The notes beneath the pieces are model-generated. The model made no database searches and was not told where the DNA came from. It saw nothing but the letters and a program-made list of their open reading frames with translations. Source: Enterobacterales bacterium (GTDB taxonomy: Bacteria; Pseudomonadota; Gammaproteobacteria; Enterobacterales; GCA-2746155). Taken from it: a DNA stretch of 64,000 nt. This document shows, one piece after another, positions 7,767-30,267 of this stretch. The stretch is from the NCBI GenBank assembly GCA_047618765.1, contig JBLHLI010000001.1:8449-72448 (forward strand), in the 5' to 3' direction. The position numbers and the translations under genes were made by a program. How positions within the stretch are numbered: position 1 is the stretch's first letter; every line of letters begins with the position of its first letter.

Positions 7767-7771
7767 GAGCA

Positions 7772-8929
7772 ATGAAGAAACGTAGAATAGCTATTGTTAT
7801 AAATAGTCGAGCCAATTATGGAAGAATAAAGTCAGTTCTTACAGAAATAAAAAAGCTTCCAGGTTTAGAATTGATGATTGTTGTAGGTGCTTCTGCATTG
7901 CTATATAGGTTTGGGAATGTAAAGGATATTATTGAGAAAGATGGATTCGAGATTACGACAGCAGTTTATTCTATTGTGGAAGGTGAAACCCCAACCACTA
8001 TGGCTAAGTCTACGGGGTTGGCCATTATGGAGTTAGCCACAATTTTTGAAAATCTAAAACCTGATATTGTCTTAACAGTAGCTGATAGATTTGAAACTAT
8101 TGCGACAGCAATAGCGGCTAGCTATATGAATATCCCTGTCGCACATACTCAAGGTGGCGAAGTTACAGGTTCAATCGATGAAAGTGTAAGGCATGCGGTG
8201 ACAAAACTTTCTCATATTCATTTTCCTGCAACGAAAAAATCTGCTGATATTTTAATAAAGATGGGGGAGTTGCCTGAAACGGTTCATTATACAGGGTGCC
8301 CAGCAATCGATATGATTGCAGATTTAGATTTAAAGTTGCCTAATGATTTCTTTGAGAAATACTTAGGGGTAGGTGAAAAAATTGACCCAGCGAAACCCTA
8401 TATAGTCGTACTACAACACCCTGTAACGACTGAATACGGACAAGGCCTTTCCCAAATAAACGAAACTTTAACTGCAGTGGGCGCTATAGATATGCAAACA
8501 GTGTGGTTATGGCCAAATGTTGATGCAGGTTCAGATGATATCTCAAAAGGTCTTAGGCAATACCGAGAGCTTAATACTAAATCAAAAATTCATTTTTATA
8601 GGAATTTTTCTGTAGAGGACTACGCAAGATTAATTTCTAATTCGTCTTGTTTGATAGGTAATTCAAGTTCTGCAATCAGGGAAGGGGCATTCTTAGGTGT
8701 GCCCGGTGTAAATATTGGTACCCGTCAACAAGGCAGGGAAAAAGCATCTAATATAGTTAATGTTGATTATAATGCTATTGAAATTCAGCGGGCCATCTCA
8801 TCTCAAATTAATCATGAAAAATATGAAAGGTCAACACTGTTTGGAGACGGCAAAGCCGGTGAGCGTATTGCTAAAATACTATCTACCACTGAGGTTAGCG
8901 TACAAAAACGTTTGTCTTATACGGATTAA
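7772..8929 (+). CDS. neuC: Hydrolysing UDP-HexNAc 2-epimerase (NeuC/LegG type)
   Basis: RIAIVINSRANYGRIKSV and AHTQGGEVTGSIDESVRHAVTKLSHIHF are characteristic of the hydrolysing NeuC branch rather than WecB. Confidence 0.8.
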   Translation: MKKRRIAIVINSRANYGRIKSVLTEIKKLPGLELMIVVGASALLYRFGNVKDIIEKDGFEITTAVYSIVEGETPTTMAKSTGLAIMELATIFENLKPDIVLTVADRFETIATAIAASYMNIPVAHTQGGEVTGSIDESVRHAVTKLSHIHFPATKKSADILIKMGELPETVHYTGCPAIDMIADLDLKLPNDFFEKYLGVGEKIDPAKPYIVVLQHPVTTEYGQGLSQINETLTAVGAIDMQTVWLWPNVDAGSDDISKGLRQYRELNTKSKIHFYRNFSVEDYARLISNSSCLIGNSSSAIREGAFLGVPGVNIGTRQQGREKASNIVNVDYNAIEIQRAISSQINHEKYERSTLFGDGKAGERIAKILSTTEVSVQKRLSYTD

Positions 8930-9004
8930 ATGAGTGTTGAGAGAGAAGTCGAGAGTTTTATAATGTTTCTTGCTAACAATGGAGTATTAGTTTAATTTTT
9001 TAAA

Positions 9005-9790
9005 ATGACAATTTATACTAAAGAACAATTAAGCGCGCATCATAATTTATTACTTGAAAAAGTTTTTCAAGTAAATACACGTTGGCCTCAGTTTACCCTT
9101 CTATTAAATGATATTAAGAAGCTAGCCGAAGAGTCTAGTGAAACAGAGAAGGTTGTTAGTCTTGAAAGGGGGCTGTTGTATGGAGGCATTAGTTTGTTTG
9201 CGCCCTACTTTTTTAAAAGTAATTTCATTTCTATTGATTGTAGTCCTAAAGCTGCTGATGAAAGTGGTGCTTACAATAAATCACTAGTAGATGACCCGAG
9301 GTTAATAAAAATAAACTCATCAAGAAGAGCATCAATAGAAAATATAGGTGTTGAAGATGATTCGGTTGATTTGGTTGTTATTCCTAATTTAGTTCATCAC
9401 GTTGAAAATCAAAAAAAATTATTTGAAGAAGTGTCTAGAATAATTAAACCCGGTGGTAAGGTGTATATATTTGAAGCTATCGTCAGGGAGCTACATCAAA
9501 TCCCCAATGATTATATTCGGTATACACCATATGGGCTATCATCTATATTAGAAAGCGTTGGTTTAAATGTTGCTAATTGTAGCCATGAAGGAGGGCCATT
9601 CTCAGCAATCTCATATTGTTGGGAGCAAGCGCTTGAATATATACCTGAAGAAGAAAGAAAAGAGTTAGAACGATGGTATCGAGAAGAGCACTTTCCAATG
9701 TTGATGAAATTTGATAACCAATATACAGAAAACTTGGTTAGGAAAAATTCCTGTTTTCCTGTTGCATTCTCAGTGTTAGCGAAAAAATAA
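9005..9790 (+). CDS. Probable class I SAM-dependent methyltransferase
   Basis: VDLVVIPNLVHHVENQKKLFEEVSRIIKPGGKVYIFE matches the post-motif-I region of Methyltransf_11-type enzymes. The N-terminal glycine motif is not obvious. Confidence 0.5.
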   Translation: MTIYTKEQLSAHHNLLLEKVFQVNTRWPQFTLLLNDIKKLAEESSETEKVVSLERGLLYGGISLFAPYFFKSNFISIDCSPKAADESGAYNKSLVDDPRLIKINSSRRASIENIGVEDDSVDLVVIPNLVHHVENQKKLFEEVSRIIKPGGKVYIFEAIVRELHQIPNDYIRYTPYGLSSILESVGLNVANCSHEGGPFSAISYCWEQALEYIPEEERKELERWYREEHFPMLMKFDNQYTENLVRKNSCFPVAFSVLAKK

Positions 9791-9806
9791 AATTATATAA
9801 AGCTGG

Positions 9807-10514
9807 TTGTCTATGTGGAAATCCTTATCCGTCTTAGCTATTGTTCCCGCAAGGGGAGGCAGCAAAGGAATCATTAAAAAAAATCTTAGGGAAATTTGTG
9901 GAAAATCATTAATAGCACATACAGCAACTTTGGTTTCAAGTATAGATTGGCTCGATGCTTCGGTTTTATCATCTGACGATCAAAGTATGATTGATGAAGC
10001 AATATTGCATAACTTGTCCGCACCATTTGTCCGACCTGATGAGCTGTCATCCGATCTTGCCAACAGTATAGATGTTTGGTTGCACGCATGGAGAGAGGCT
10101 GAAAAATTTTACAACAAGGTATTTGATGTTTCTATATTACTAGAACCTACAAGTCCGTTAAGGACTAGAGAAGACATCGAGCGGGTAATGCAACTATTAG
10201 ATAAACCTAAGGTTAATTCCGTTGTAACAGTATCTAAGACTCCAGCGCACTATACCCCAGAAAAAACATTAGTTTTAAATCAAAATAGATTAAAAAATTA
10301 TTTAGATACGGATACACCAATTCGTCAGATGATCCCAAGTTACTACCATAGGAATGGTATTTGTTATGGTATGAAAAGAGAGCATTTTTTTAAAAACAAA
10401 TGTATTTTCTCAGATTCCACGGAAGCCGTTTTAATCGATAGGCCAATCGTTAATATTGACGATGAATTTGAACTTGATTATGCATCGTGGCTAATGCATA
10501 AAACCATAAAGTAA
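9807..10514 (+). CDS. neuA: Acylneuraminate (NulO) cytidylyltransferase, CMP-sugar synthetase 1
   Basis: AIVPARGGSKGIIKKNL, the signature nucleotide-binding loop of CMP-NeuAc synthetase family enzymes. TTG at 9807 or ATG at 9813. Confidence 0.8.
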   Translation: MSMWKSLSVLAIVPARGGSKGIIKKNLREICGKSLIAHTATLVSSIDWLDASVLSSDDQSMIDEAILHNLSAPFVRPDELSSDLANSIDVWLHAWREAEKFYNKVFDVSILLEPTSPLRTREDIERVMQLLDKPKVNSVVTVSKTPAHYTPEKTLVLNQNRLKNYLDTDTPIRQMIPSYYHRNGICYGMKREHFFKNKCIFSDSTEAVLIDRPIVNIDDEFELDYASWLMHKTIK

Positions 10515-10580: not shown

Positions 10581-11810
10581 ATGTATCGCAATAGAACTTC
10601 AAATAATATGATTCCATATGGTCAGCACTATATTGACGAAGATGATATAGACAAAGTCGTAGAAGTATTAAGATCTGGTACTTTAACTCAGGGTCCAGTT
10701 ATTTATGAATTTGAAACGACATTAGCTAAACAGGTTGAAGCAAAATATGCTGTAGCGGTCTCAAGTGGAACTGCGGCATTACATCTTGCTTGCTTGGCTG
10801 CAGGTATTGGTCCAGGCAAGAAAGTTTATACTTCTGCTAATACATTCGTTGCCAGCGCCAATAGCGTAATTTACACGGGGGGTGAACCAAGATTTACCGA
10901 TATTAATGTTGATACACTTAATATGTGCCCCGAATCTCTTTTGTCACATATCGCAAAGGATCCTGAAATAGATGCAGTTATTCCTGTTCATTTTGCTGGT
11001 TTACCTTGTGATATGGAAGCAATAAGTAATATAGCCAGTAAACACAATGCAAAAGTAATTGAAGATGCATCCCATGCACTCGGGGCTTATTATTCCTCAG
11101 GGAAACCTGTTGGATGTTGTGCATATTCTGAGATGACGGTGTTTTCATTACATCCAGTTAAAGGCGTTACAGCGGGCGAGGGTGGAGTTATAACAACGAA
11201 TGATTCCGCAATCTATTCCAAACTGCTTCATTTGCGTAGTCACGGTATTTCTAAAGGCAATTTTGATATCCCAGGCATCAGCGAAGGTGATGATGCTTTA
11301 GTTTATAAAGATGAGGCTATTGATAATGGTAAATTAAACCCGTGGTATTATGAAATGCAGGAGTTAGGATATAATTATAGGATTACTGACTTTCAATGCG
11401 CATTAGCATTATCACAGTTACAAAAAATCAACAAATTTATGCAACGTAGAAAAGAAATAGCAAAAATCTACGATAGTGAACTCGCAAACTTACCTTTTGT
11501 CACCTTAACTCAGGCTGATGCTTGTAGTAACAGCTCCCTACATTTATATGTTATTCGAATAGACTTTAATAAGTTAGGTAAAACGCGTGGGGAAGTAATG
11601 CGTGAACTGTTCGAAAAGAATATTGGTACACAAGTACATTACATCCCAGTTCCATTTCACCCTTATTATGCTGATATGGGTTTTGAGCGTGATAATTATC
11701 CAGTAACAAAAAATTATTATTATCAAGCTTTGTCAATTCCTATCTATTATGAACTTACAGATTCAATGGTTGCTGATGTTGTTTCTGGAATTAAAGATAC
11801 TCTACGGTAA
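10581..11810 (+). CDS. pseC: DegT/DnrJ/EryC1-family PLP aminotransferase, PseC-like
   Basis: MIPYGQHYIDEDDIDKVVEVLRSGTLTQGP (PseC-type N-terminus) and SLHPVKGVTAGEGG (PLP lysine). The real start is probably the ATG at 10608. Confidence 0.75.
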   Translation: MYRNRTSNNMIPYGQHYIDEDDIDKVVEVLRSGTLTQGPVIYEFETTLAKQVEAKYAVAVSSGTAALHLACLAAGIGPGKKVYTSANTFVASANSVIYTGGEPRFTDINVDTLNMCPESLLSHIAKDPEIDAVIPVHFAGLPCDMEAISNIASKHNAKVIEDASHALGAYYSSGKPVGCCAYSEMTVFSLHPVKGVTAGEGGVITTNDSAIYSKLLHLRSHGISKGNFDIPGISEGDDALVYKDEAIDNGKLNPWYYEMQELGYNYRITDFQCALALSQLQKINKFMQRRKEIAKIYDSELANLPFVTLTQADACSNSSLHLYVIRIDFNKLGKTRGEVMRELFEKNIGTQVHYIPVPFHPYYADMGFERDNYPVTKNYYYQALSIPIYYELTDSMVADVVSGIKDTLR

Positions 11811-11820
11811 GAATTGATCA

Positions 11821-12690
11821 GTGAAATTAGCTCTAGGTACAGTTCAGTTTAGTCAAAATTATGGAATAGCCAACAAAAGAGGCATGATTCCTTATAATGA
11901 AGTGCAAGAAATCTTAAAATACTCAAATGAAGCAGGTATTAACACTTTAGATACGGCTATTTCGTATGGTGATTGTGAAACTATTTTAGGGAGTGTAGGT
12001 GTAGATTCATGGCAAGTGATTTCAAAGCTTCCTGAGATCCCTTTAAATTGTAACGATATAAAAAGATGGATAGTTGAAACGGTTAAGTCTAGCCTTAATA
12101 AGTTAAATGTTCCTCAGCTTCATGCCTTATTATTACATAGACCAAAACTATTACTGGAAGATAATGGCGATATAATCTACCAAACTTTAAATGAGTTAAA
12201 AGAGAAAAAATTAATAAAAAATATTGGAATTTCAATTTATGAGGCAAATGAGTTGGAGTCAATTATTAACAATTACAAGGTTGACATTGTTCAAGTACCT
12301 TTTAACTTGATGGACCATCGGCTTATCGAATCTGGCTTATTAGCTAAAATGGCATCTTCTAATATTGAAGTGCATGTACGCTCAATTTTCTTGCAGGGAT
12401 TGCTTTTAATGAATAATGAAAATAGGCCAAAAAAATTCAATTTCTGGAAAAACAATTGGAATAAATATGATCAGTGGCTTAAAGTTAATGGGTTAACTCC
12501 ATTACAAGCGTGTTTAAAATTTGTTTCTTCTTTTTCTGAAATTGAAAAAATAGTAGTAGGCGTTGATCATATTTGCCATATTAAGCAAATAGTAGAGGCT
12601 TATAAGGTTGAAACGAATCTAACACCAGTGAGATTTAATAGTGATGACTTGAACTTATTAAACCCTTCAAATTGGATAAATATAAAATAA
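11821..12690 (+). CDS. Aldo/keto reductase family oxidoreductase
   Basis: LGTVQFSQNYG, NTLDTAISYGDCE, LLLHRP, GISIY and VQVPFNL are typical AKR strand/loop motifs. GTG start. Confidence 0.7.
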   Translation: MKLALGTVQFSQNYGIANKRGMIPYNEVQEILKYSNEAGINTLDTAISYGDCETILGSVGVDSWQVISKLPEIPLNCNDIKRWIVETVKSSLNKLNVPQLHALLLHRPKLLLEDNGDIIYQTLNELKEKKLIKNIGISIYEANELESIINNYKVDIVQVPFNLMDHRLIESGLLAKMASSNIEVHVRSIFLQGLLLMNNENRPKKFNFWKNNWNKYDQWLKVNGLTPLQACLKFVSSFSEIEKIVVGVDHICHIKQIVEAYKVETNLTPVRFNSDDLNLLNPSNWINIK

Positions 12691-13709
12691 GCTTGTTGGA
12701 GAAGTATATGAGTATAGAAATAATTGCAGAGTTAGCACAAGGTTTTGAAGGAAAACCGGAGCAAGCCAAGCTATTAATGTTGGCTGCAAGTAAAGCTAAA
12801 GCTGATGCTGTTAAATATCAGCTGGTTTATGCAGACGAATTAGCTACAACTGACTATGAGTATCATGAATTGTTTCAGTCTTTAGAGATGCCAGATGAAG
12901 TTTGGCATGAATTAGCAAGTTATGCCAAACAGTTAAAGATAAAATTACAGTTTGATATTTTTGGAGAAAAAAGTCTTAAATTAGCTGAAGAAGTTAAAGT
13001 AGACACTGTGAAGTTACATGGAACAGATATAGCAAACATTGGGCTACTGAATAAAGTATCATTCAGCACGATTAAAAGAGTAATATTAGGTGCAGGGGGA
13101 GCATTCCTTAGCGAGCTTGAGCGAGCTTTAGATATCTTGAATGATAAAGAAGTTGTTGTTTTGTTTGGGTATCAAGGATACCCAACACCGATTGATACTA
13201 ATCAAATTTCTCGAATTCAGCTATTTAAACATATGGTGGGGGATAGCAGAGACAACGTAATAGTTGGTTTTGCTGATCATGCTGAACCAGACTCGGAATT
13301 ATCGTATGCAATAGCTGCAACCTCTATAGGAGCAGGTGCTAAAGTTATAGAAAAACATTTAACGTTAGGGAAAACAATGGAGTTGGAAGATCATGAGTCG
13401 GCATTAAACCCTGACGAATTTTTAATATTTTCAGAAACCGTTCGGAATTGTGCCAAAGCTTATGAAGGAGCGATTCATGAAAATGATTTTGGTATGAGTG
13501 ACGCTGAATATAATTACAGAAAATTGATAAGACGACATGTCGTTAGCGTTAAAAATTTAAGTAAAAATACAATTATTAAGCATGATGACGTAGGTCTAAA
13601 AAGAACCTCGTCGGAATCATTCCTAACAGATATTGAGAGCGTTTATAATAAAGTGGTGTTAAATGATATTCAAGAGAACGCACCTATTTTACCGGAGAGC
13701 GTTAAATAA
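12672..13709 (+). CDS. Divergent NeuB/SpsE-family synthase (paralog 2)
   Basis: AELAQGFEGK...AVKYQLV, GFADHAEPD, IEKHLT and a C-terminal SAF-like domain. The canonical NH(x)G of the N-terminal motif is replaced by GFEG. Likely start is the ATG at 12708 (MSIEIIAEL), preceded by ggagaag. Confidence 0.65.
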   Translation: MDKYKISLLEKYMSIEIIAELAQGFEGKPEQAKLLMLAASKAKADAVKYQLVYADELATTDYEYHELFQSLEMPDEVWHELASYAKQLKIKLQFDIFGEKSLKLAEEVKVDTVKLHGTDIANIGLLNKVSFSTIKRVILGAGGAFLSELERALDILNDKEVVVLFGYQGYPTPIDTNQISRIQLFKHMVGDSRDNVIVGFADHAEPDSELSYAIAATSIGAGAKVIEKHLTLGKTMELEDHESALNPDEFLIFSETVRNCAKAYEGAIHENDFGMSDAEYNYRKLIRRHVVSVKNLSKNTIIKHDDVGLKRTSSESFLTDIESVYNKVVLNDIQENAPILPESVK

Positions 13710-13711
13710 AA

Positions 13712-14479
13712 ATGAAACGAAAATTAGTTGCAGCGTTAGCCTGTCGTAATCAAGGAACAAGATTATACGGTAAGCCTCTTCAAAACTTAGATGTGAATAA
13801 TAATGTAACTATATTAGATAATATAGTAGATTGTTTAAAGTCAATTGATTGTATAGAAGATATTGTCCTCGGAATTTCCGAGGGCATTGAAAATGAAATA
13901 TTCAAAATAATTGCAAAACAAAAAGGTATTAAATACATCGTTGGAGATCAGACTGATGTTTTATCTAGGCTTATACAGTGTGGGAAATTAGTTGATGCAA
14001 CGGATATACTCCGTGTTACTTCTGAGTCACCTTTTCCATATTATGAAATAATACAAGAAGCATGGGGAGATCATGTGAAAAATGTTGTGGATGCAACTTT
14101 TCTGGATGAAATTGTTGATGGTTGCGGTTTTGAAATAATTAGTTTACAAGCTCTATCTATTTCTCACTCAAAAGGAAAACAGAAGCATAGGTCTGAACTG
14201 TGTACTTTGTATATACGTGAGAATGCTAGTGAGTTTAATATATTAAGAGTTGGTCTTAGTAATAAATTAATAAGAAAAGACCTTAGGTTAACGGTAGACA
14301 ATCCAGAAGATTTGGTTGTATGTAGACATATATACAAACAGTTTAAAGATAAAGCACCAAATATTTCTGTAAATGATATTGTAAATTTTTTAGATCAAAA
14401 TGAAGAACTTGTGAAGCTTGTTTCACCTTATACAGAAATAGGATATTCAACGATGTACATATTTGATGAAAATGAATAA
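13712..14479 (+). CDS. SpsF/PseF-like cytidylyltransferase, CMP-sugar synthetase 2
   Basis: KLVAALACRNQGTRLYGKPLQNL, the nucleotide-binding N-terminus of CTP_transf_3 / SpsF-type enzymes. Lies next to the NeuB paralog. Confidence 0.6.
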   Translation: MKRKLVAALACRNQGTRLYGKPLQNLDVNNNVTILDNIVDCLKSIDCIEDIVLGISEGIENEIFKIIAKQKGIKYIVGDQTDVLSRLIQCGKLVDATDILRVTSESPFPYYEIIQEAWGDHVKNVVDATFLDEIVDGCGFEIISLQALSISHSKGKQKHRSELCTLYIRENASEFNILRVGLSNKLIRKDLRLTVDNPEDLVVCRHIYKQFKDKAPNISVNDIVNFLDQNEELVKLVSPYTEIGYSTMYIFDENE

Positions 14480-15779
14480 TAAAGGATCAAAACTTTGGCA
14501 GCGAGCTAAAAAAATCATTCCAGGAGGGAATATGTTGCTTTCAAAGAGACCAGAGATGTTTTTGCCAGAATTATGGCCTTCGTATTTTAGTAAAGCTAAA
14601 GGCTGTAAGGTCTGGGATTTAGATGGAAAGGAATATATCGATATGTCTATCATGGGTATTGGTACAAATACTCTTGGGTATGGGCATGATGCGGTTGATA
14701 AGGCGGTCCAAAATGTGCTCGCAAATGGAAACATGTCTACATTTAATTGTCCCGAAGAAGTTTACTTAGCGGAAAAGCTTGTTGAGTTACACCCATGGTC
14801 AGATATGGTACGGTTTGCAAGGACGGGTGGTGAAGCTAATGCGATTTCGATTCGGATAGCAAGAGCCGCTACAGGTAAGGATAATGTAGCTATTTGTGGT
14901 TATCATGGATGGCATGACTGGTATCTCTCGGCAAATTTGTCTGATGATGAAAATTTATCTTCACATTTACTATCTGGACTTGATACGAATGGAGTTCCAA
15001 GGAACTTAAAAAATACTATATATCCCTTTAACTATAATAACTTTGATGAATTAAAGCGTCTAGTTGAGACAAAAGATATTGGTGTTATAAAAATGGAAGT
15101 CAGAAGAAATTTACAACCAAAAGATGATTTTCTAAATAAAGTTAGAGATATAGCAAATAAAAATAATATAGTTTTAATTTTTGATGAATGTACTTCTGGT
15201 TTTAGACAGAGTTATGGTGGGCTACATAAAATATATAATGTCGAACCTGATATGGCTATATTTGGAAAGGCACTCGGAAATGGTTATGCGATAACTGCTA
15301 TTTTAGGTAAAAGAGAGGTGATGGAAGCTGCTCAATCTACTTTTATCAGTAGTACATTTTGGACAGAAAGAATTGGCCCTGCAGCAGCATTAAAAACACT
15401 TGAGATTATGGAGGCAGGAAAATCCTGGGAGATAATAACCGAAACTGGTTTAGATATTACATCTAAATGGAGACAGTTAGCTGAAAGTTATGGCCTCCCA
15501 ATAACTACAGGGGGATTATCTGCCTTAACTTATTTTTCGATTGATAGTGAAAATTTTCTAGCGTATAAAACCTTTATTACTCAAGAGATGCTAAAAAAAG
15601 GATATTTAGCGGCAAACAGTATTTATGTATGTACTGAACACCAGCCAGTTGTAATCGATGGTTATTTTTCCGCGCTAGATGAAATATTCAAAATAATAAA
15701 AAAGTGTGAAGAAGGTGAAGATATTTATAAATTGCTTGATGGTCCTGTTTGTCATGATACATTCCAACGATTAAATTAA
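14463..15779 (+). CDS. Class III PLP aminotransferase (glutamate-1-semialdehyde aminomutase-like)
   Basis: GYGHDAVDKAV, FDECTSGFR and AIFGKALGNGYAI (PLP lysine). Overlaps the upstream gene by 17 nt. Confidence 0.75.
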   Translation: MMKMNNKGSKLWQRAKKIIPGGNMLLSKRPEMFLPELWPSYFSKAKGCKVWDLDGKEYIDMSIMGIGTNTLGYGHDAVDKAVQNVLANGNMSTFNCPEEVYLAEKLVELHPWSDMVRFARTGGEANAISIRIARAATGKDNVAICGYHGWHDWYLSANLSDDENLSSHLLSGLDTNGVPRNLKNTIYPFNYNNFDELKRLVETKDIGVIKMEVRRNLQPKDDFLNKVRDIANKNNIVLIFDECTSGFRQSYGGLHKIYNVEPDMAIFGKALGNGYAITAILGKREVMEAAQSTFISSTFWTERIGPAAALKTLEIMEAGKSWEIITETGLDITSKWRQLAESYGLPITTGGLSALTYFSIDSENFLAYKTFITQEMLKKGYLAANSIYVCTEHQPVVIDGYFSALDEIFKIIKKCEEGEDIYKLLDGPVCHDTFQRLN

Positions 15780-15797
15780 ATAAATTTTATTCTAAAT

Positions 15798-16370
15798 ATG
15801 AAGCACGCAATAAATTTAAGACCATTTTCTGAAAATGATATTACAGTTGTTTGGGAATGGCGCAATAGCCATAATGTTTCCAAATATATGTATAGACAAT
15901 CCATTGTTCCTTATGAAGAACACGAGAAGTGGTTCCATAAAATATCAAATGATAATAGTTCAGAATATTGGATTATACAATCTGGAAAAAATGACATTGG
16001 AGTCGCATGTATAACTAATATTAATGTAGAACATAAGCACGCAGATTGGGCTTTTTATATTGCAAATACACAGACAAGAAACTCGGGTATTGGTGCGTAT
16101 GTGGAGTTTCAAATCATTTATACTGTTTTTGAAAAACTTAAATTAAACAAATTATGTTGTGAGGTTTTAGCGTGGAATGAGTCAGTTATAAAGTTACATA
16201 AAAAATTTGGTTTTGTTGAAGAGGGAATAAAGCGTGAGCACGTGTTAATTAATGACGAGTATCAAGATATTGTATGTTTTAGTTTGTTGGCATCGGAGTG
16301 GGAAAAAGATAAAAGTGAACACTTTTCTCGTTTTAAGCGATTAGGATTTTTTACAAGTCAGCCTATATAA
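15798..16370 (+). CDS. pseH: GNAT N-acetyltransferase, PseH-like
   Basis: LRPFSENDITVVWEWRNSHNVSKYMYRQSIVPYEEHEKWF matches the PseH-type N-terminus. Has a GNAT core and is adjacent to the PseG-like gene. Confidence 0.7.
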   Translation: MKHAINLRPFSENDITVVWEWRNSHNVSKYMYRQSIVPYEEHEKWFHKISNDNSSEYWIIQSGKNDIGVACITNINVEHKHADWAFYIANTQTRNSGIGAYVEFQIIYTVFEKLKLNKLCCEVLAWNESVIKLHKKFGFVEEGIKREHVLINDEYQDIVCFSLLASEWEKDKSEHFSRFKRLGFFTSQPI

Positions 16371-16371
16371 A

Positions 16372-17319
16372 ATGACAAGCGTAAATATAATTCCCGATAG
16401 CTCTCCTAGTCAGGGCCTAGGACATGTTTCACGTTGTATGTCTTTAGCAAAAGTGTTAAAAGAACGAGGGTTTGAGATAAATTTCACTGTAAGCTCTTAT
16501 AAAGCTTTAAAACACATTCATAAAAAAGGATATGATGCATCAATCGGTTCGAATGCAACAGATATATATTATGATATAACCATAGTTGATAGTTATACAT
16601 ATCCTGAGTCGTATTATATTGAACAAAAGAAAAAACAAAATTGTTTAATTGTTATTGATGATTTGGCAGATAGAAAGTTAACAAGTGATATTTATATTAA
16701 TCACAATTTATTTGCAAATAATTTGGATTTAAAAAATATAATATCCAACCATTTTTTGTTAGGTTTTGAATATGCGTTAGTCGATCGTTCTTTTTACGAT
16801 ATAACTAAAATTAAGAAATCATCAAACTGCATTAGTATATCTTATGGCGGAACTGATAATGGACAGTTTTCAGTGCCAGTAATTGAAAGTTTAAGAAAAT
16901 TAAAGATAGAAAACCCAATTAACTTAATTCTTTCTGATTTAAATAAAATAAAGCCTGAAAAATTAAAATATATTAGGGATAACTATATAGTAAATATTTC
17001 TAGTGAGGTAGAAATGTCTGATATATTAGCTGATACTTTTATTTTTTTATGTGCTGCTGGGCAAACTTCGTTAGAAGCTCTTATCTCTAATACGGCATTT
17101 GTTGCTTTTCTAATGGCAGATAACCAAATACCAAACGCAAAAGCATTGAAAGACTTAAATTTTCCTGTTGTGAATCAATTTGATCCGTATATAATAGCTA
17201 AAAAAACAAAAGATATAGTAAACAATAATTCTCCAAACCAATTTGATTTCTTCTATAATAAAAATGTCGTAATAGGTCCAGATAATATTGTTAATAGGAT
17301 AGTTGATTATATAAAATAG
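16372..17319 (+). CDS. pseG: PseG-like UDP-sugar hydrolase (GT28-like fold)
   Basis: GLGHVSRCMSLAKVLKERG N-terminal motif and a SYGGTDN mid-region, typical of PseG/SpsG. Confidence 0.65.
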   Translation: MTSVNIIPDSSPSQGLGHVSRCMSLAKVLKERGFEINFTVSSYKALKHIHKKGYDASIGSNATDIYYDITIVDSYTYPESYYIEQKKKQNCLIVIDDLADRKLTSDIYINHNLFANNLDLKNIISNHFLLGFEYALVDRSFYDITKIKKSSNCISISYGGTDNGQFSVPVIESLRKLKIENPINLILSDLNKIKPEKLKYIRDNYIVNISSEVEMSDILADTFIFLCAAGQTSLEALISNTAFVAFLMADNQIPNAKALKDLNFPVVNQFDPYIIAKKTKDIVNNNSPNQFDFFYNKNVVIGPDNIVNRIVDYIK

Positions 17320-17362
17320 CTATGTACACATCAATTGTATTGTTTATTTTTGGAGAAATAGT

Positions 17363-18679
17363 ATGGAATTAGAATTCGTAAGTAATACAGGGTTCTATTT
17401 GTCGAATCAGGAGCATGTTTTTGGTATGGACTTATGGTTCACACAAGGTGCATTTGAAGGCAGTTGGTATCATTTTCCACCTTTAAGAAAAACTAAATAT
17501 AGAATTGAAGATTGCGACACCATATATATATCACATATTCATCCAGATCATTGCGACTTCAATTCTCTACGTTACGCAAAAAAAGATACTGTTTTTGTTG
17601 TTCCCGGGTATTTCAATCATCTAATCAAACGAAAACTAGAAGTTTTTGGCTTTTACAATATAGTTTCTCTGCAGCACGGTGAAGAAGCAACGCTTCCTTG
17701 TGGTGCACATGTTCGCTTATATAAACAGTTTGTGAATAATATGGGGATTGATGCTAAATTTGGAAGTTTGATTGATAGTGCTCTATTAATCAAATGGGAC
17801 GGAAAGGTCATACTTAATTGTAATGATAACTATATAGATTTGGAGTCTGCGCAAGAAATAAAAAAAGAATTTAATACAATTGATCTGGCATTACTACCTC
17901 ACTCAGCTTCAGGCCCTTATCCTGCAAGTTTTAATAATTTATCCTTAGATGAAAAATATTTAGAAGCTGATCGCTTGTCTAATTTTTATATTAATCATTT
18001 CCTTGAAATGACAGAAACTTTACAGCCAAGACTGGTTGTCCCCTGTGCTGCAGAGTATGTGGTTGTTGGACGAATGTGGAAAAAGAATGACCATATTGGT
18101 CTTGCTTATCCCAAAGATGCTGTAGATAGATGGAAGGCAAAAGCTGAAACTCATGGATGTCATACTGAAGCTCATCATTTAGATTGTGGAACGATTTTAA
18201 ATCTTGATACAGGTAAAACATATGGCCTTGAACCACGTAATCCATCAGTAAAGGAGAGGATGGAGTTCGCTAATAAGTATAAGGATGTTAATTTTCGTTA
18301 CGAATGGGAAGATACTTGTACTTCAGTAGAGGATTTAAATGTATTAATTCTTGCAGCTAGAGTGAATATGTGGGAAATGCAAAAAAAATTAAACTGGTTT
18401 AAAGATTATAATGTTTATATAAATATTGAGGGCCTTTATTTATACCATTTGAATTTTAGTGTTGAGAAAATTGATAATAAAATTGAAGAGCGATATACTC
18501 CCTATTTAGAAGTGCGTTTATCACAACAATTAATGTACTCAATTATTACAAAAAAAGTACATTGGAATAATGCTGAAGGCGGATTACATTTAGAATTTTA
18601 TAGAGAGCCGAATTTATATGTGCCTGAAGTTTTTATATTAATGTCCTTTTTTCATGCTGAAAAAATTCAATATAAATAG
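17363..18679 (+). CDS. Metallo-beta-lactamase-fold protein, unknown role in glycan tailoring
   Basis: IYISHIHPDHCDF (HxHxDH). 438 aa, longer than simple MBL hydrolases. Confidence 0.6.
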   Translation: MELEFVSNTGFYLSNQEHVFGMDLWFTQGAFEGSWYHFPPLRKTKYRIEDCDTIYISHIHPDHCDFNSLRYAKKDTVFVVPGYFNHLIKRKLEVFGFYNIVSLQHGEEATLPCGAHVRLYKQFVNNMGIDAKFGSLIDSALLIKWDGKVILNCNDNYIDLESAQEIKKEFNTIDLALLPHSASGPYPASFNNLSLDEKYLEADRLSNFYINHFLEMTETLQPRLVVPCAAEYVVVGRMWKKNDHIGLAYPKDAVDRWKAKAETHGCHTEAHHLDCGTILNLDTGKTYGLEPRNPSVKERMEFANKYKDVNFRYEWEDTCTSVEDLNVLILAARVNMWEMQKKLNWFKDYNVYINIEGLYLYHLNFSVEKIDNKIEERYTPYLEVRLSQQLMYSIITKKVHWNNAEGGLHLEFYREPNLYVPEVFILMSFFHAEKIQYK

Positions 18680-18723
18680 TCGATTATATAAATTAAAACT
18701 TATTATTAATAGGATGATTTAAA

Positions 18724-19488
18724 ATGGCAAGAGAGATACCAAGTTATAAAGTAAACTCTGACCATAGCTTTGAACAAGCTATGGAAGATCACCTCGAAAC
18801 TCAAGTTAAAAAGCAAGGCGCATTAAATGTTGTTAATGGCTTTTCCAAATACGCAAGAAGGCAAGAGATAACTAGATTTTTGGTTAGGCATGAGTTGTAT
18901 AAATTAATTCAAGATCATAAAGGATGTATAGCAGAGTGTGGTGTATATGCTGGACAAGGTTTAATGACTTGGGCACAGCTTTCCACAATTTATGAACCTG
19001 TTGGAGGGATGTTTAGACATATTTATGGATTTGATACGTTTGAAGGTTTTCCATCTGTTGATGATAAGGATAAGATTGGTGATTCAAAGTTTGATTGGAA
19101 AGAAGGCGATTTAGCTAATGATAGTTATGACGATTTATTGAATTGTATCGAGTTATACGATAAAAATCGTTTTCTATCGCAAATCCCTAAGGTGAGCTTG
19201 GTTAAAGGTGATTTTAATAAAACCTCTAAAACTTTCTTGCAGGATAATCCTCATGTACTATTTTCACTAATATATCTTGACTTTGATTTATACGAGCCAA
19301 CAAAGCAAGCTTTAGAATTTTTTCTTCCTCGTTGTTCTAAAGGAACTATTTTAGCTTTTGATGAAATTAATCATCCACTTTGGCCTGGTGAAACATTAGC
19401 GCTTTTGGAGGGTTTTGATATTAAAACATCAAAACTAAGACAGTTTAATATTGACCCTACTATCTCTTACTTAATTATAGGAGAATAA
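18724..19488 (+). CDS. TylF/MycF-family sugar O-methyltransferase
   Basis: ECGVYAGQGL, YGFDTFEGFP and IYLDFDLYEPTKQALEFF...GTILAFDE are diagnostic of the TylF (Methyltransf_24) family. Confidence 0.75.
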   Translation: MAREIPSYKVNSDHSFEQAMEDHLETQVKKQGALNVVNGFSKYARRQEITRFLVRHELYKLIQDHKGCIAECGVYAGQGLMTWAQLSTIYEPVGGMFRHIYGFDTFEGFPSVDDKDKIGDSKFDWKEGDLANDSYDDLLNCIELYDKNRFLSQIPKVSLVKGDFNKTSKTFLQDNPHVLFSLIYLDFDLYEPTKQALEFFLPRCSKGTILAFDEINHPLWPGETLALLEGFDIKTSKLRQFNIDPTISYLIIGE

Positions 19489-19498
19489 GAATAATTAT

Positions 19499-20782
19499 AT
19501 GATTAACAATAAACAAAATGATGAAAATACTTGGGATAAAACTTGGTCTGACCCTGGTGCCCAAGCTTGGTACCCGGACGAACAAGTTGTTCGTTTTCTA
19601 TCAAGATATTATGTTCAAAAAACTGGCTTGTCTAAAAATGAAAAAAATTGGAAAGCAAAACCTGAAACAGAAATAAAAGGTTTGGATCTTGGTTGTGGTA
19701 AAGGAAGACATGTCGTTACTATGGCTGAACAAGGAATAAAAAGTTTTGGAATAGATATATCAGAAGTTGCTATTCAAGATGCAATAAAATGGATAGAGCA
19801 TTTAAAAATTAATGCGGATTTAATTTCTGGAACAATTGAAAAGTTGCAGTATCCTGATGAATGTTTTGATTTAGTGATATGTCATGGAGTATTGGATCAT
19901 ATATTAGTTGATGTTAGAGTGGCTGCAATTGAAGAGACGTGGCGTATTTTAAAACCTGGAGGTCGATTTTTTGTCAGTTTGATTTCAGAAACTGATAGTG
20001 CATTAGGTGAAGGGGAAATAATAGAAGAAATGACATGGCTAATACCAAATGGATATGAAGCGGGCATGCCACAATCTTTTTTTAATGTTGATAGAATTAA
20101 TAAAGAATTAAGTGATTTTCAACTTGAGAGTATAGTTAAGGTCAGTAATGAGTCTTTTTATGGCCGAAGTTTAATTGGAACAGATAAGCATTACGCTTGC
20201 GACTCTCGTTACTATGTTACTGCAATTAAGCCGCTGCATGAAATGTTAAGTCATAATGATTATTCAAGTATTAAAATTTTATTAGAGCCTGAAGAAACAA
20301 GTTATTTATCTATATTAGATGAAGGCAGTGTGACAGATTATTATGTTGACTCAATGAGTGACCCTGATGTTATTAAATGGTTAGTAAATGTTAAGTTGAA
20401 CCCGCCTTCAGAATGTGATGTAAAAAAATATGTGGTGGATAATTTAACTGATCCATATTCATGCTTGTTTGGTTTTTATCATAAGAATGAGCTTAGTGGC
20501 ACAGTACGAATACATGATGTAAATCAAGTGTCAGGTTCAGCAATATTGGGTATAGTTATATTTAATAAATCTATTTGGGGCTATGGTTGGGGTAATAAAT
20601 TATTATCAAAAATAGGTGAGTATTGCTTTAAGAATTTAAAATTGAAGTCAATATTTGCATCTATAGATTCTGAAAACATATATGCAAGAAAATCATTTAC
20701 TGATGCAGGTTTTATTCGATGTCCATCTAGAGATGTCGAATATGGGTTTGGCAATGCTACTTGCTTTGAATTGATTCGATAA
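19499..20782 (+). CDS. Bifunctional fusion: N-terminal class I methyltransferase + C-terminal GNAT acetyltransferase
   Basis: N-terminal half: GLDLGCGKGRHV and ILKPGGRFFVSL. C-terminal half: IWGYGWGNKLL...ENIYARKSFTDAGF (GNAT motif A region). Confidence 0.65.
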   Translation: MINNKQNDENTWDKTWSDPGAQAWYPDEQVVRFLSRYYVQKTGLSKNEKNWKAKPETEIKGLDLGCGKGRHVVTMAEQGIKSFGIDISEVAIQDAIKWIEHLKINADLISGTIEKLQYPDECFDLVICHGVLDHILVDVRVAAIEETWRILKPGGRFFVSLISETDSALGEGEIIEEMTWLIPNGYEAGMPQSFFNVDRINKELSDFQLESIVKVSNESFYGRSLIGTDKHYACDSRYYVTAIKPLHEMLSHNDYSSIKILLEPEETSYLSILDEGSVTDYYVDSMSDPDVIKWLVNVKLNPPSECDVKKYVVDNLTDPYSCLFGFYHKNELSGTVRIHDVNQVSGSAILGIVIFNKSIWGYGWGNKLLSKIGEYCFKNLKLKSIFASIDSENIYARKSFTDAGFIRCPSRDVEYGFGNATCFELIR

Positions 20783-20801
20783 AAATAATTGTGGCTTACT
20801 A

Positions 20802-21845
20802 ATGAATTTTAAAATAGACAATAAAAGTGTAGGGAAAGGGTGTAAGCCTTATGTAATTGCAGAAATGTCTGGCAATCATAATGGAAATATTAATAGGGCA
20901 TTAAGGATTATTGATGAAGCCAAAAAAGTTGGCGCTGATGCTGTAAAAATCCAAACATATACCCCTGATACGATTACAATAGATTGTGATAATGAGGATT
21001 TTAAAATTAAGAGTGGTTTATGGAAGGGCAAAAATTTGTATGAGTTGTATGGTTGGGCTCATACTCCTTGGGAGTGGCATAAAGAATTGTTTGATTATGC
21101 AAGAAAAGTAAATATTACTTGTTTTAGCTCACCTTTTGACACCTCTGCGGTAGACTTATTAGAAGACTTAAATACGCCTGCATATAAAATTGCATCTTTT
21201 GAAATAGTGGACTTACCTTTAATTGCTTATGTAGCCAAAACCAAAAAACCTATGATTCTATCAACAGGTATGGCTAATGTTGAAGAAATAACGGAAGCAG
21301 TTACAACGGCTAAAGACAATGGCTGTACGGAAATGGCTTTACTACACTGTATCAGTGGTTATCCAACACCTGTTGATCAATCCAATATAAGAACCATATC
21401 AGATTTGATAGAAAGATTTAATTTAATTGTTGGTCTGTCAGATCATACTATGGGTACAGCAGCGGCTGTAGCAAGTGTGGCCCTTGGTGCTGCTGTTATA
21501 GAAAAGCATTTCACTCTTAATAGAGAAGATAAAGGACCCGATAGCGAATTTTCACTAGAACCAGATGAATTTTCATCGCTCTGTAATGATACGAGAGATG
21601 CTTGGTTGGCTCTGGGGGAACCAGGGTATGAGAGTAAAGTTGTAGAGCGTAGTAACCTTAAGTTTAGACGTTCGCTATATGTAGTAAAAGATCTAAAGAA
21701 AGGTGATAAATTCAGTAAAGAAAATGTAAAAAGTATAAGGCCAGGTTTTGGAATGTCCCCTAAATATTATTTTAAAGTTTTGGAAAAAAAAGCAGCTAGG
21801 GAATTAAAAAAAGGAACAGCTCTTAATTGGGATCTGATCAGCTAG
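20802..21845 (+). CDS. pseI: Pseudaminic acid synthase-like NeuB-family enzyme (paralog 3)
   Basis: YVIAEMSGNHNGN...AVKIQTY, SSPFD, STGMA, GLSDHTMG, IEKHFT and a C-terminal SAF domain. Canonical PseI-type motifs. Confidence 0.8.
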   Translation: MNFKIDNKSVGKGCKPYVIAEMSGNHNGNINRALRIIDEAKKVGADAVKIQTYTPDTITIDCDNEDFKIKSGLWKGKNLYELYGWAHTPWEWHKELFDYARKVNITCFSSPFDTSAVDLLEDLNTPAYKIASFEIVDLPLIAYVAKTKKPMILSTGMANVEEITEAVTTAKDNGCTEMALLHCISGYPTPVDQSNIRTISDLIERFNLIVGLSDHTMGTAAAVASVALGAAVIEKHFTLNREDKGPDSEFSLEPDEFSSLCNDTRDAWLALGEPGYESKVVERSNLKFRRSLYVVKDLKKGDKFSKENVKSIRPGFGMSPKYYFKVLEKKAARELKKGTALNWDLIS

Positions 21846-22193: not shown

Positions 22194-23810
22194 ATGATTA
22201 AAAATTATCTTAAAAAACGAAAAAATAAATATATTCGTAATCTTATGCGGGGTTATAGAAACTTATCCCAGTCGGGAAAAATCTATAAAATTGCTGATTT
22301 AAAACGACAGCTAACAATTTCAAAACTTAAACTTGGTTTTTTTTCAGATAGAATATTAAGCGATAGTCTAGATGATTATGAAATTGTTATTCGGCAATAT
22401 TTATTGACCCGATTCGCTAGTATTAATTTAAATAAAGCTATACTTTATGGTAATAGAAAGTCTAATGGTAAGTTAGTTTTTCCGTTGCCTAAATTATGGC
22501 GGGATATTGTTGAAGAAAATGGCTTGAAGGTAGCTAAATATAGGTGCATGTTACTTTGGCAAATGACATTAGTCTGTTATTTTTTTTATGGGGTATTATT
22601 TATTTTTAAAAAAATATATGCCTCCTTAATTGTGTGTTTTTTTTACAAAAAGTCAACTCCTGAAAATTATATTTATTTTTTTAGTTTAAAAGAAAATAAT
22701 ATATCTGTAAGTTCGGATGAAAAAAATATTTACAATATGATTAGTTGGTATTCTAATTGGAATGGGAGAGCATCAAGTATTGAAGTCATTTGTCATGATG
22801 TGAATGTAGCGACGAAAAGCTTGAGGGGTAATCTTTCTTTACAATACATGCCTTCTGCAACACCTCCATTAGGGAGTTTATTTGAAATAACTCATTTTCT
22901 CAGGTGGAGTATAGGCGCAATATTTATAAGCCTGTTTGACTTGTTGAGAGGTAGGTGGTGGCATGTTCTCTTGTTGCAAGAGTCTGCTAAATCTGCCTTA
23001 ATTAGACTTCAAAAAAAATCTCTTGCTAAGGAGTACTTTTTCCATAATTCCGAATGGATTTACCGACCCCTTTGGACATATGAAGCAGAACGAAAAGGGG
23101 CAGAAATTACTTTCTATTTCTATTCTACTAACATTGAAGGTTTTAAACGTGACGAGAATGCTCCTCATAAATATCATTATGGATATCAATCAATGAATTG
23201 GCCACGTTATTTAGTTTGGAATGAATGTCAGGCTGATTTTGTACGTAGAGTTAATATATATATTCCTGAAATAGTTAATGTGGGGCCAATATGGTTTGAG
23301 GATACAAGTGAGGCCACTATTTTATTGCCGCCAAATGGCGTGGCTGTTTTTGATGTTCAGCCAGTACGTGATTGCTTTTATAAAATGCTATGTATTGATT
23401 TTGACTATTATATACCCGAAAATTGTAATCAATTTATAATAGATGTTTATGCAGAATTAACTGAGGCTGATTGTAATCTCATGCTAAAACAAAAAAGAAA
23501 GTTAGGTAAATTGATTCATCCAAGATATAAGAAACATATCAATCGATTAAATATGAAATCTAACTTTATTATAATTAATGCAGAGATAAGTCCAATTAAA
23601 ATTATTGAGAAAGCAATTGCAGTAATATCAATGCCGTTTACATCAACAGCATTATTAGCTAAAGATTTAGGTAAGCCTTCTATTTATTACGACCCATTTG
23701 GCATAATTAAACAAGATGACGGAGCTTCTCATGGAATACAAATTGTGACAGGGAGAAAGGAATTAAAGAAGTGGGTTGATGAGGTGGCTCAAAAAAATAT
23801 AAATCATTGA
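22194..23810 (+). CDS. Uncharacterised polysaccharide-biosynthesis protein with HP and PFTS motifs (candidate glycosyltransferase)
   Basis: 538 aa. Hydrophobic segment around residues 118-150. C-terminal KLIHPRY (HP 442-443) and ISMPFTSTALLAKDLGKPSIYY (PFTS 481-484). I recall a family named for a PFTS motif, but this is unverified here. Confidence 0.4.
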   Translation: MIKNYLKKRKNKYIRNLMRGYRNLSQSGKIYKIADLKRQLTISKLKLGFFSDRILSDSLDDYEIVIRQYLLTRFASINLNKAILYGNRKSNGKLVFPLPKLWRDIVEENGLKVAKYRCMLLWQMTLVCYFFYGVLFIFKKIYASLIVCFFYKKSTPENYIYFFSLKENNISVSSDEKNIYNMISWYSNWNGRASSIEVICHDVNVATKSLRGNLSLQYMPSATPPLGSLFEITHFLRWSIGAIFISLFDLLRGRWWHVLLLQESAKSALIRLQKKSLAKEYFFHNSEWIYRPLWTYEAERKGAEITFYFYSTNIEGFKRDENAPHKYHYGYQSMNWPRYLVWNECQADFVRRVNIYIPEIVNVGPIWFEDTSEATILLPPNGVAVFDVQPVRDCFYKMLCIDFDYYIPENCNQFIIDVYAELTEADCNLMLKQKRKLGKLIHPRYKKHINRLNMKSNFIIINAEISPIKIIEKAIAVISMPFTSTALLAKDLGKPSIYYDPFGIIKQDDGASHGIQIVTGRKELKKWVDEVAQKNINH

Positions 23811-28095: not shown

Positions 28096-28504
28096 CCAAG
28101 CTCTATTAGTTCGTGAAGTAATGCTATCTTTAGCTAATACACCAGTGATTAGCGAAAAGGTGATTCTGAAAGAAGCCTTAGAAGAGATGTCGCGCAGTAG
28201 AATAGGTATTGTGTGTATTATCGATGAGCAGGCTAAATTGTTAGGCGTGCTTACGGATGGCGATATACGAAGAAAATTACTTAAAGTACAAAAACCTTTT
28301 TCAGCTTTTTTTGTTGATGATGCTCTTGAACATGCTATTCAATCGCCAACTTCAATTCAGCCTGATGATAGATTGATTGATGCAATACAGTTGATGGGCG
28401 AAAAACAAATTTGGGATTTACCGGTAACAGATTCTAAAGGAGCACTTCAGGGTTTACTCCATCTTCATCCTGCCATTCAGGCCTTAATGGGAATGGAAGC
28501 TTGA
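28079..28504 (+). CDS. Stand-alone CBS-pair protein resembling the C-terminal half of KdsD/KpsF (no SIS isomerase domain)
   Basis: 141 aa. LLGVLTDGDIRRKLL and LQGLLHLHPAIQA parallel E. coli KdsD IEGIFTDGDLRRVF and LLGVLHMHDLLRA. Starts 17 nt inside the kdsA-like gene, so there is no room for an SIS domain. Confidence 0.65.
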   Translation: MSIQNNQALLVREVMLSLANTPVISEKVILKEALEEMSRSRIGIVCIIDEQAKLLGVLTDGDIRRKLLKVQKPFSAFFVDDALEHAIQSPTSIQPDDRLIDAIQLMGEKQIWDLPVTDSKGALQGLLHLHPAIQALMGMEA

Positions 28505-29451: not shown

Positions 29452-29466
29452 ATTAAGTGGATTGAG

Positions 29467-30258: not shown

Positions 30259-30267
30259 AAGAAGATT

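Follow-up and report, generated by a model that had tools for sequence, protein, structure and literature searches.

Pseudaminic acid (Pse)-type sugars coat flagella, capsules and O-antigens, and the textbook model of their synthesis is the six-step pathway of Campylobacter and Helicobacter. A 64,000-nucleotide stretch from an Enterobacterales bacterium (GenBank assembly GCA_047618765.1, contig JBLHLI010000001.1, positions 8,449 to 72,448, forward strand; referred to here as the window) contains a Pse-type gene block in which four genes lie between pseC and pseH. This quartet, the cassette, encodes an aldo/keto reductase (AKR), a divergent NeuB-family protein (NeuB'), an SpsF-type cytidylyltransferase (CT') and a class III aminotransferase resembling glutamate-1-semialdehyde (GSA) aminomutases (AT3). 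Every open reading frame (ORF) listed for the window between 10.5 and 21.9 kb is on the plus strand, and packing is tight: the gaps between consecutive block genes are 10, 17, 2, 18 and 1 bases, and CT' overlaps AT3. When gene calls were scored against NCBIfam equivalog cutoffs and Pfam, the block genes passed those of PseC, PseH and PseI (Table 1). The pseC-, pseH-, pseG- and pseI-like genes and the four-gene block named in an initial annotation of this DNA all lie where it had placed them, on that strand, with the PseG-like gene scoring below its cutoff. The NeuB' ORF opens with a TTG at 12672, and homologues place the true start at the ATG at 12708, giving 333 amino acids. Three further tailoring genes, encoding a metallo-beta-lactamase (MBL)-fold protein, a TylF-like methyltransferase and a methyltransferase::GNAT fusion, separate pseG from pseI; this trio recurs 3' of pseI in a metagenome locus (L114) at 48-59% identity.

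Table 1. Genes of the Pse-type block, followed by adjacent features of the window. Scores are in bits.
Feature	Coordinates	Strand	Basis
pseC (UDP-4-amino-4,6-dideoxy-N-acetyl-beta-L-altrosamine transaminase)	10581..11810	+	TIGR03588 482, cutoff 423; DegT Pfam 347
AKR, aldo/keto reductase, first gene of the cassette	11821..12690	+	PF00248 105
NeuB', divergent NeuB-family protein	12708..13709	+	PF03102 121; SAF (PF08666) 23.5
CT', SpsF-type cytidylyltransferase	13712..14479	+	PF02348 24.5, cutoff 22.6 (marginal)
AT3, class III (GSA-aminomutase-like) aminotransferase, subtype A	14463..15779	+	PF00202 138
pseH (N-acetyltransferase)	15798..16370	+	TIGR03585 153, cutoff 93
pseG-like UDP-sugar hydrolase	16372..17319	+	TIGR03590 129, below cutoff 153.6; no Pfam match; position after pseH fits
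MBL-fold protein	17363..18679	+	Pfam
TylF-like methyltransferase	18724..19488	+	Pfam
Methyltransferase::GNAT fusion	19499..20782	+	Pfam
pseI, canonical pseudaminic acid synthase	20802..21845	+	TIGR03586 520, cutoff 340; motif AEMSGNHNG
PFTS-motif polysaccharide biosynthesis protein, likely downstream partner	22194..23810	+	TIGR04417 341, cutoff 100
Adjacent second nonulosonate cassette	6726..10514	+	NeuB paralog 1, NeuC, methyltransferase, PseF/NeuA-like cytidylyltransferase

Two steps of the textbook pathway have no direct counterpart in the block. The PseF model (TIGR03584) does not match CT', and in the window the gene at 9807-10514 reaches 104 bits against a cutoff of 206. No pseB was found in or beside the block; the best match in the window, beyond which the source contig extends for about 12 kb, lies at 41589-42650 and scores 285 bits, below the cutoff of 408. 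That gene belongs to a trio (40720-43780; RmlD-like, PseB/FnlA-like and WecB-like) similar to those for FnlA/B/C-type 6-deoxy-L-hexosamine synthesis, and a membrane-anchored PglF/WbpM-like dehydratase is encoded at 50203-52158. Either the trio or the dehydratase might supply the 4-keto intermediate in trans.

The initial annotation had described a Pse pathway split by an inserted second synthase set. An insertion is contradicted by the distribution of the gene order, which is the standing arrangement in about 45 loci from genomes and about 50 from metagenomes, spread over many phyla. The common architecture is pseB, a second short-chain dehydrogenase/reductase (SDR) gene, pseC, AKR, NeuB', CT', AT3, pseG and, further on, pseI; in 'Ca. 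Methylopumilus' and Chlorobium it runs from an ABC exporter through PseB, the second SDR, PseC, AKR, NeuB', CT' and AT3 to variable tailoring genes, PseG, PseI and a GNAT. A genome scan built on a NeuB' alignment returned 47 loci, nearly all of which keep the order, from Alpha-, Beta- and Gammaproteobacteria, Desulfobacterota, Bacteroidota, Nitrospirota, Planctomycetota, Gemmatimonadota, Actinomycetota and SAR11. Across genomes and metagenomes together, the cassette order recurs in more than 100 loci and at least nine phyla, and partner genes in related loci pass equivalog cutoffs (PseB, 521 bits against 408; PseG, 295 against 154). An insertion or mobile origin was also sought in the window itself and rejected: the GC content of the block matches that of its neighbours, no flanking direct or inverted repeats beyond chance surround it, and neither terminators nor promoters are enriched. 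The block is tied to Pse loci rather than to an unrelated pathway.

Within these loci, the association of NeuB' with CT' is far beyond chance. In a metagenome scan seeded with CT', NeuB' lies immediately 5' of CT' in 51 of 57 informative loci, and 2 more carry a divergent or truncated NeuB' copy. Conversely, CT' is present in 99 of 101 NeuB' loci, a PseF-like cytidylyltransferase in just 2, and an AKR 5' of NeuB' in 85, a count limited by contig ends. The quartet also behaves as a module, since in locus L013 it forms a separate plus-strand unit flanked by minus-strand genes. Spearman correlations of sequence identity (NeuB' with AKR 0.57, with CT' 0.43, with AT3 0.08) are weak as a sign of co-inheritance and are not used as evidence. 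Two loci, from Gallionella (L027, 8002-17227) and Pelagibacteraceae (L045, 4814-14114), hold PseB and the quartet, with no DegT/PseC aminotransferase in the approximately 10 kb of flank examined. In the Pelagibacteraceae locus, a radical-SAM/SPASM gene stands beside the cassette.

NeuB' has the NeuB fold, a TIM barrel with a SAF/antifreeze-like domain, and its predicted model (pLDDT 83) matches PseI (8h2c; Foldseek E 2e-23) and NeuB (1xuu). It reaches 148 bits with the NeuB equivalog model (cutoff 400) and 109 bits with that of PseI (cutoff 340). Members are about 60% identical to one another across phyla and only about 20-25% identical to PseI. The AELAQGFEGK motif reported for this paralog is indeed present in the translation (...IEIIAELAQGFEGKPEQ...; the motif reads IIAELAQGFEGK), and AELAQGFEG is invariant in 20 NeuB' homologues. 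The other two NeuB paralogs of the window read VAEVAQAHDGS (6726-7766) and IAEMSGNHNGN (PseI).

The roles of individual residues can be taken from papers citing the structure of Neisseria meningitidis NeuB, whose numbering is used here. According to these papers (PMC11339185, PMC8208679), three serines, S132, S154 and S213, termed 'fully conserved' among the synthases of bacteria and mammals, bind the phosphate of phosphoenolpyruvate (PEP) together with N184; K53 and K129 hold the PEP carboxylate, close to T110; H215 and H236 are the manganese ligands; and Q55, Y186, D247 and R314 bind the acceptor sugar. When 46 NeuB' sequences were compared with 41 canonical paralogs of the same loci, E25, K53, Q55, K129, Y186, H215, E234, H236, D247 and R314 were found to be kept in at least 45 of the 46 (canonical: E25 in 37 of 41, the other nine in 39-41). 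Other positions differ sharply. All 46 NeuB' have Gly at N29, Phe or Tyr at H30, Asp at T110 and Gln at N184, where the canonical paralogs have Asn (37 of 41), His (37), Thr or Ser (39) and Ser (34), respectively. G131 is His and G133 is Thr in 45 of 46 NeuB' (canonical: Ala in 34 and Phe in 30 of 41). S132 is Gly in 32 and Ser in 9 NeuB', S154 is Gly in 36 and Ser in 9, and S213 is Ala in 42, compared with canonical serines in 41, 39 and 41 of 41. The window NeuB' reads G/G/A at these last three positions and has lost the PEP-phosphate serine triad. On this alignment the PEP pocket of NeuB' is rebuilt, with T110D, G131H, N184Q and S213A, to which S132G and S154G are often added.

Searching 1.8 billion representatives with a profile widened the NeuB' clade to 133 clusters, with a signature of D/E110, H131, T/S133, D134, Q184 and a non-serine residue at 213. 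The metal ligands and the catalytic and acceptor residues are near-invariant across these 133 representative clusters. NeuB' is an old NeuB clade without an earlier description or a characterised member. The initial annotation had treated loss of the Asn-His pair as a change of substrate motif, a view that the residue data do not support. N29 and H30 are absent from the ligand-contact lists of N. meningitidis NeuB in the available portions of the structure-citing papers, and the clade-wide changes sit in the PEP pocket. The pair is a marker rather than the key change, because loss of His30 (to Phe or Tyr) is confined to the core subclade. Among named enzymes with solved structures, SpsE, Campylobacter jejuni PseI and N. 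meningitidis NeuB all keep the Asn-His pair, against the motif change being common in characterised SpsE/LegI enzymes. In one locus (L134, 2696-5587), a single 963-residue chain (P0275) joins a canonical NeuB (AEAGINFNG), a NeuB'-like domain (AEIASAHCG) and an SpsF-type cytidylyltransferase, and is followed by a GNAT and then a PseG-like::FrhB fusion. The presence of both NeuB types in one polypeptide argues against redundancy.

CT' is the hub of the cassette, as gene fusions link all four enzymes. Its model (pLDDT 87) best matches an uncharacterised Leptospira cytidylyltransferase (6oew; TM score 0.81) and then KdsB, which makes CMP-Kdo, and the CMP-Kdn and CMP-Neu5Ac synthetases (E 1e-9 to 1e-8). 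CT' also has a weak match (35 bits) to the 'spiro-SPASM' family (TIGR04321), in the N-terminal part of that family. NeuB'::CT' fusions occur in 26-28 of the 150 best representatives from the profile search; they include core-motif proteins such as P0280 (AEVAQGFEG), which has a CT' part 57% identical to that of the window. A continuous 585-residue NeuB'-like::CT' ORF is present on plasmid p1 of Bacillus cereus BC38B (NZ_CP109873.2, 512369-514126; L137, 8992-10749), in the order Pen-like, Pal-like, pseC, NeuB'-like::CT', pseG, pseH, pseI. The gene table of this plasmid lists only a 335-residue 'NTP transferase domain-containing protein' whose start lies within the NeuB-like domain, perhaps through a mis-called start or because the table omits the upstream part. 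CT' is also joined to AT3: a plasmid of Pseudosulfitobacter pseudonitzschiae has both in a single RefSeq coding sequence, with an AT3 part 64% identical to that of the window, and the locus there reads pseB, pseC, AKR, GNAT, hypothetical, CT'::AT3, pseG::GNAT, pseI. In locus L136 the order is PseB, PseC, GFO oxidoreductase, NeuB'::CT', GFO::AT3, PseG, PseI, with the AKR slot taken by a second GFO oxidoreductase. GNAT::NeuB' and GFO::GNAT::NeuB' fusions occur as well. Of the 'second synthase set' in the initial annotation, the word 'set' is supported in spirit, since the many NeuB'::CT' fusions mark these two as a coupled pair; 'second' fits less well, as CT' is usually the sole cytidylyltransferase in such loci and is more likely the pathway's own PseF substitute.

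AKR and AT3 have the features of working enzymes. The Asp-Tyr-Lys-His tetrad of AKR (D43/Y48/K69/H106) is conserved in all 42 orthologues, which argues against a KidO-like regulator; the KidO equivalog score of 120 bits is below the cutoff of 244, and this assignment was rejected. AT3 retains its pyridoxal phosphate lysine (K269), and its relatives in the PDB are GSA aminomutases and aminoglycoside C-6' aminotransferases. Identification as HemL was likewise rejected: AT3 falls below every HemL cutoff (PRK06209, 254 against 486 bits; TIGR00713, 192 against 527) in a context of sugar rather than haem biosynthesis. Two class III lineages that share only about 30% identity occupy its slot: subtype A in 14 loci, as in the window, and subtype B in 28 (among L001-L047). 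The subtype does not track NeuB' similarity. In L132 and L133, genes for an iron-dependent alcohol dehydrogenase (Fe-ADH) and a DegT aminotransferase adjoin NeuB' and CT' as a non-homologous replacement. An earlier suggestion that the extra aminotransferase and reductase add an amino substituent survives in spirit, as the GFO::AT3 fusion and the Fe-ADH/DegT stand-ins pair the aminotransferase with an oxidoreductase.

The reading favoured here, with a probability of about one half, is that the stretch is one co-directional Pse-type nonulosonate operon with the CT'-centred cassette as an integral part, in which CT' performs the PseF step, AKR and AT3 carry out an amination, and NeuB' is an active enzyme. 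CT' most likely catalyses activation with CMP, a role suggested by its fold, by where it lies and by the lack of any other cytidylyltransferase. AKR and AT3 would most likely form a dehydrogenase/transaminase pair that converts a free hydroxyl, on the nonulosonate itself or on its CMP form, to a carbonyl and then to an amine; this assignment draws on the gene fusions and on the non-homologous replacements (GFO, Fe-ADH, DegT). Fusion with, or replacement by, enzymes of these three families is the usual signature of sugar hydroxyl-to-amine conversion. A 9-deoxy nonulosonate has free hydroxyls at C4 and C8. The C8 methyl-carbinol would be the best candidate, its oxidation giving a methyl ketone, a typical substrate of class III transaminases. 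This would yield a Pse-type sugar with one more amine, which could be decorated by extra GNATs and methyltransferases such as the methyltransferase::GNAT of the window and the extra GNAT in Pseudosulfitobacter. NeuB' may act just before CT', either condensing PEP with a variant 2-acetamido-6-deoxyhexose or processing the nonulosonate for activation, without replacing PseI. Strong selection on its entire catalytic set is the reason for favouring an active enzyme.

Several observations weigh against this reading. Normal PEP chemistry of NeuB' is uncertain to judge from the residues, because S132, S154 and S213 are replaced in most NeuB' and T110 is Asp. NeuB' is missing from five otherwise identical loci (L052, L104, L130, L131, L138), and loci of Aeromonas (PMC7874193) and Legionella Sg6/12 (PMC3694923) are without it; being optional and found alongside PseI, it does not serve as the main Pse synthase. 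The operon of the Bacillus type carries the fusion without AKR or AT3 and, by synteny with a cited study, would yield plain CMP-Pse, and a second synthase seems unnecessary there. In the window, the second PseF-like cytidylyltransferase at 9807-10514 could serve PseI. Where on the sugar the amination would fall is a guess. Finally, AT3 might be more central in the Gallionella and Pelagibacteraceae loci, where the flank shows no DegT.

The variable presence of NeuB' can also be accommodated if CT' is the CMP-Pse synthetase, AKR and AT3 leave the sugar skeleton alone and build or modify an N-acyl substituent such as a hydroxy- or amino-acyl group, and NeuB' is a non-synthase accessory domain serving nonulosonate binding, hand-over or anomer selection. 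The lost phosphate-binding serines and the Asp at T110 would suit such a domain, as would its constant place beside CT' or fused N-terminally to it and the retention of canonical PseI in the same loci. The variable part of the loci is moreover rich in genes for acyl tailoring (PIG-L deacetylase, formyltransferase, ATP-grasp, CN-hydrolase). This scheme is nonetheless rather unlikely. Near-invariance of the metal, catalytic and acceptor residues in the 133 clusters would be unusual for a mere binding domain, and the GFO::AT3 fusions and Fe-ADH/DegT replacements typify conversion of a sugar hydroxyl to an amine. Furthermore, Aeromonas subgroup IA consists only of pseB, pseC, AKR, pseF, aminotransferase, pseG and pseI, with no enzyme for making or loading an acyl precursor (PMC7874193).

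The rebuilt pocket of NeuB' admits a bolder proposal, that the cassette provides the route still missing for tri-amino nonulosonic acids, such as an 8-amino-8-deoxy Pse-type sugar resembling that of the Tenacibaculum maritimum O-antigen, with NeuB' performing a reaction new to the NeuB family. The enlarged, serine-poor phosphate pocket could take a substituted phosphate, for example a CMP-linked nonulosonate, which resembles the tetrahedral intermediate of the synthase, or a donor other than PEP. NeuB' would then work jointly with CT' and not as a plain second synthase. In this full form the proposal is unlikely.

It is quite improbable that the quartet is self-contained, in the manner of Kdo8N synthesis, and makes another CMP-sugar from a non-Pse precursor, with both sugars ending up in one glycan. 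The separate transcription unit in L013, the synthase-like and activase-like enzymes fused in many genomes, the lack of pseC in the flank examined of L027 and L045, and the ulosonate cassettes standing side by side in the window all lend themselves to such an independent second ulosonic acid. However, most loci would then have no cytidylyltransferase for the PseI product, and where enough flank is available the quartet never occurs without Pse-type genes. The AKR/CT'/AT3 triad also occurs without NeuB' in loci whose only synthase source is PseI, and the cassette is not accompanied by a gene that would supply a precursor, such as NeuC. That NeuB' is merely a redundant PseI isozyme with the same substrates, its motif changes being neutral drift after duplication, is highly improbable: although the fold and catalytic residues are shared and some divergent members retain S132 and S154, the fixed differences from canonical paralogs of the same loci (D110, H131, T133, Q184, A213, G29), with about 60% identity across phyla within the family and only about 20-25% to PseI, point to long-standing selection for a distinct function.

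The block lies in an ABC-transporter-type polysaccharide locus with further sugar genes. In the adjacent second nonulosonate cassette, NeuC scores 391 bits, above its cutoff of 236, and NeuB paralog 1 scores 285, below 400. By-eye reading of NeuB paralog 1 (AEVAQAHDGS) finds canonical PEP-pocket positions, with Ala in place of Asn29. The genes at 27214-32654 look like a fourth ulosonic-acid cassette. Besides a CBS-domain protein and two SDRs, they encode a paralog of KdsA, the Kdo8P synthase (344 bits, above cutoff), a NanM-like sugar O-methyltransferase, an HpcH/HpaI aldolase and a cytidylyltransferase with a strong CTP_transf_3 match (31872-32654, 128 bits), and they point to a modified Kdo-like sugar from this polysaccharide locus. 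The PFTS-motif protein downstream of pseI may be a nonulosonate transferase or polymerase; 10 related loci also have a member of its family (TIGR04417). Two large ORFs of 812 and 480 residues at 36839-40723, with no Pfam match and in a zone of strongly negative AT skew (to -0.27), probably encode multi-pass membrane proteins that serve the locus, for instance as polymerase, flippase or ligase.

A large share of environmental Pse loci, in Proteobacteria, Bacteroidota, Chlorobi, Nitrospirota, Planctomycetota, Actinobacteriota, Gemmatimonadota and SAR11, thus run a version different from the textbook pathway, with a non-PseF activating enzyme, two conserved tailoring enzymes and a NeuB clade. Parts of the cassette had been noticed earlier in genome comparisons; for the NeuB' clade no earlier description was found. 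Resolving the cassette could explain glycan masses such as the 403 Da sugar of Aeromonas, give genes to amino-nonulosonates without a pathway, correct the routine mis-annotations 'HemL', 'SpsE' and 'SpsF', and supply enzymes for chemoenzymatic synthesis of sialic-acid-like sugars.

Among known systems, the canonical synthases NeuB, PseI, LegI and SpsE (1xuu, 8h2c, 1vli) share with NeuB' the TIM barrel, the antifreeze-like domain and the His215/His236 metal site, as well as E25, K53, Q55, K129, Y186, E234, D247 and R314. NeuB' differs from them by N29G, H30F, T110D, G131H, S132G, G133T, S154G, N184Q and S213A and by its obligate pairing with an SpsF-type cytidylyltransferase. The logic proposed for AKR and AT3 has a parallel in Shewanella Kdo8N synthesis, in which the Fe-ADH KdnB and the aminotransferase KdnA oxidise and then transaminate a hydroxyl of a finished ulosonic acid; the Fe-ADH and DegT genes of L132 and L133 are comparable. 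However, KdnB and KdnA belong to families other than AKR and class III aminotransferases, and the sugar of the cassette would be a C9, 9-deoxy compound with no terminal CH2OH. An 8-amino manno-type nonulosonate occurs in Tenacibaculum maritimum without assigned genes (PMC3210612, PMC9796276), and the O-antigen paper on this species names generic enzyme classes only (PMC9796276).

Literature searches on the gene quartet turned up comparative-genomics mentions, with no biochemistry of any cassette member and nothing on the NeuB' paralog. In Aeromonas, the commonest small flagellin glycosylation island comprises pseB, pseC, an 'alpha/keto reductase', pseF, a class III aminotransferase, pseG, sometimes pseH, and pseI, and the study describing it leaves the reductase and aminotransferase unexplained (PMC7874193). 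These polar-flagellin islands of group I (subgroups IA-IE) have the same gene order as the window cassette, and their product is a Pse derivative. Unlike the window, they have no NeuB' between the reductase and the cytidylyltransferase; they also have no second SDR after pseB, they target flagellin rather than lying in a polysaccharide locus, and the cytidylyltransferases are likened by gene order. A. hydrophila AH-1, of group I or III, carries a 403 Da Pse-derivative flagellin glycan (PMC4691044). Its odd nominal mass calls for an odd nitrogen count; C19H32O9, the formula that the authors ranked first, contains no nitrogen (PMC4691044). A three-nitrogen Pse derivative would fit both the mass and the aminotransferase idea, which is only a hint, the subgroup of the AH-1 island not being stated.

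Other loci carry the same enzymes in other arrangements. Legionella pneumophila Sg6/12 has CapD, DegT and AKR genes and, further on, a cytidylyltransferase, a GSA-type aminotransferase and PseG (PMC3694923). In the Pse-type nab cluster of Vibrio sp. B9-25K2, an AKR::SpsF-like cytidylyltransferase fusion follows PseC and is proposed to replace a missing NeuA (PMC7371886). The two enzymes thus form one chain there, neither a NeuB' nor a class III aminotransferase is described, and a dehydrogenase comes next. A close reconstituted system is the seven-enzyme operon of B. thuringiensis and B. cereus (Li et al. 2015), which, as cited in later papers, has Pen, Pal and PseC-, PseF-, PseG-, PseH- and PseI-type genes and makes plain CMP-Pse5Ac7Ac (PMC5109656, PMC7439481). 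As seen on the B. cereus plasmid, this operon resembles the window loci in its PseB-like enzyme and second SDR, pseC, a CT'-type enzyme with an N-terminal NeuB'-like domain, pseG, pseH and pseI. The NeuB'-like domain differs in being fused, in keeping His30 (AEIANAHQG) and in being only 30% identical to NeuB', and neither AKR nor AT3 is present. Judging from synteny only, the assayed B. thuringiensis CMP-Pse synthetase would be the 585-residue fusion, and it would be the CT' type that performs the CMP-Pse step.

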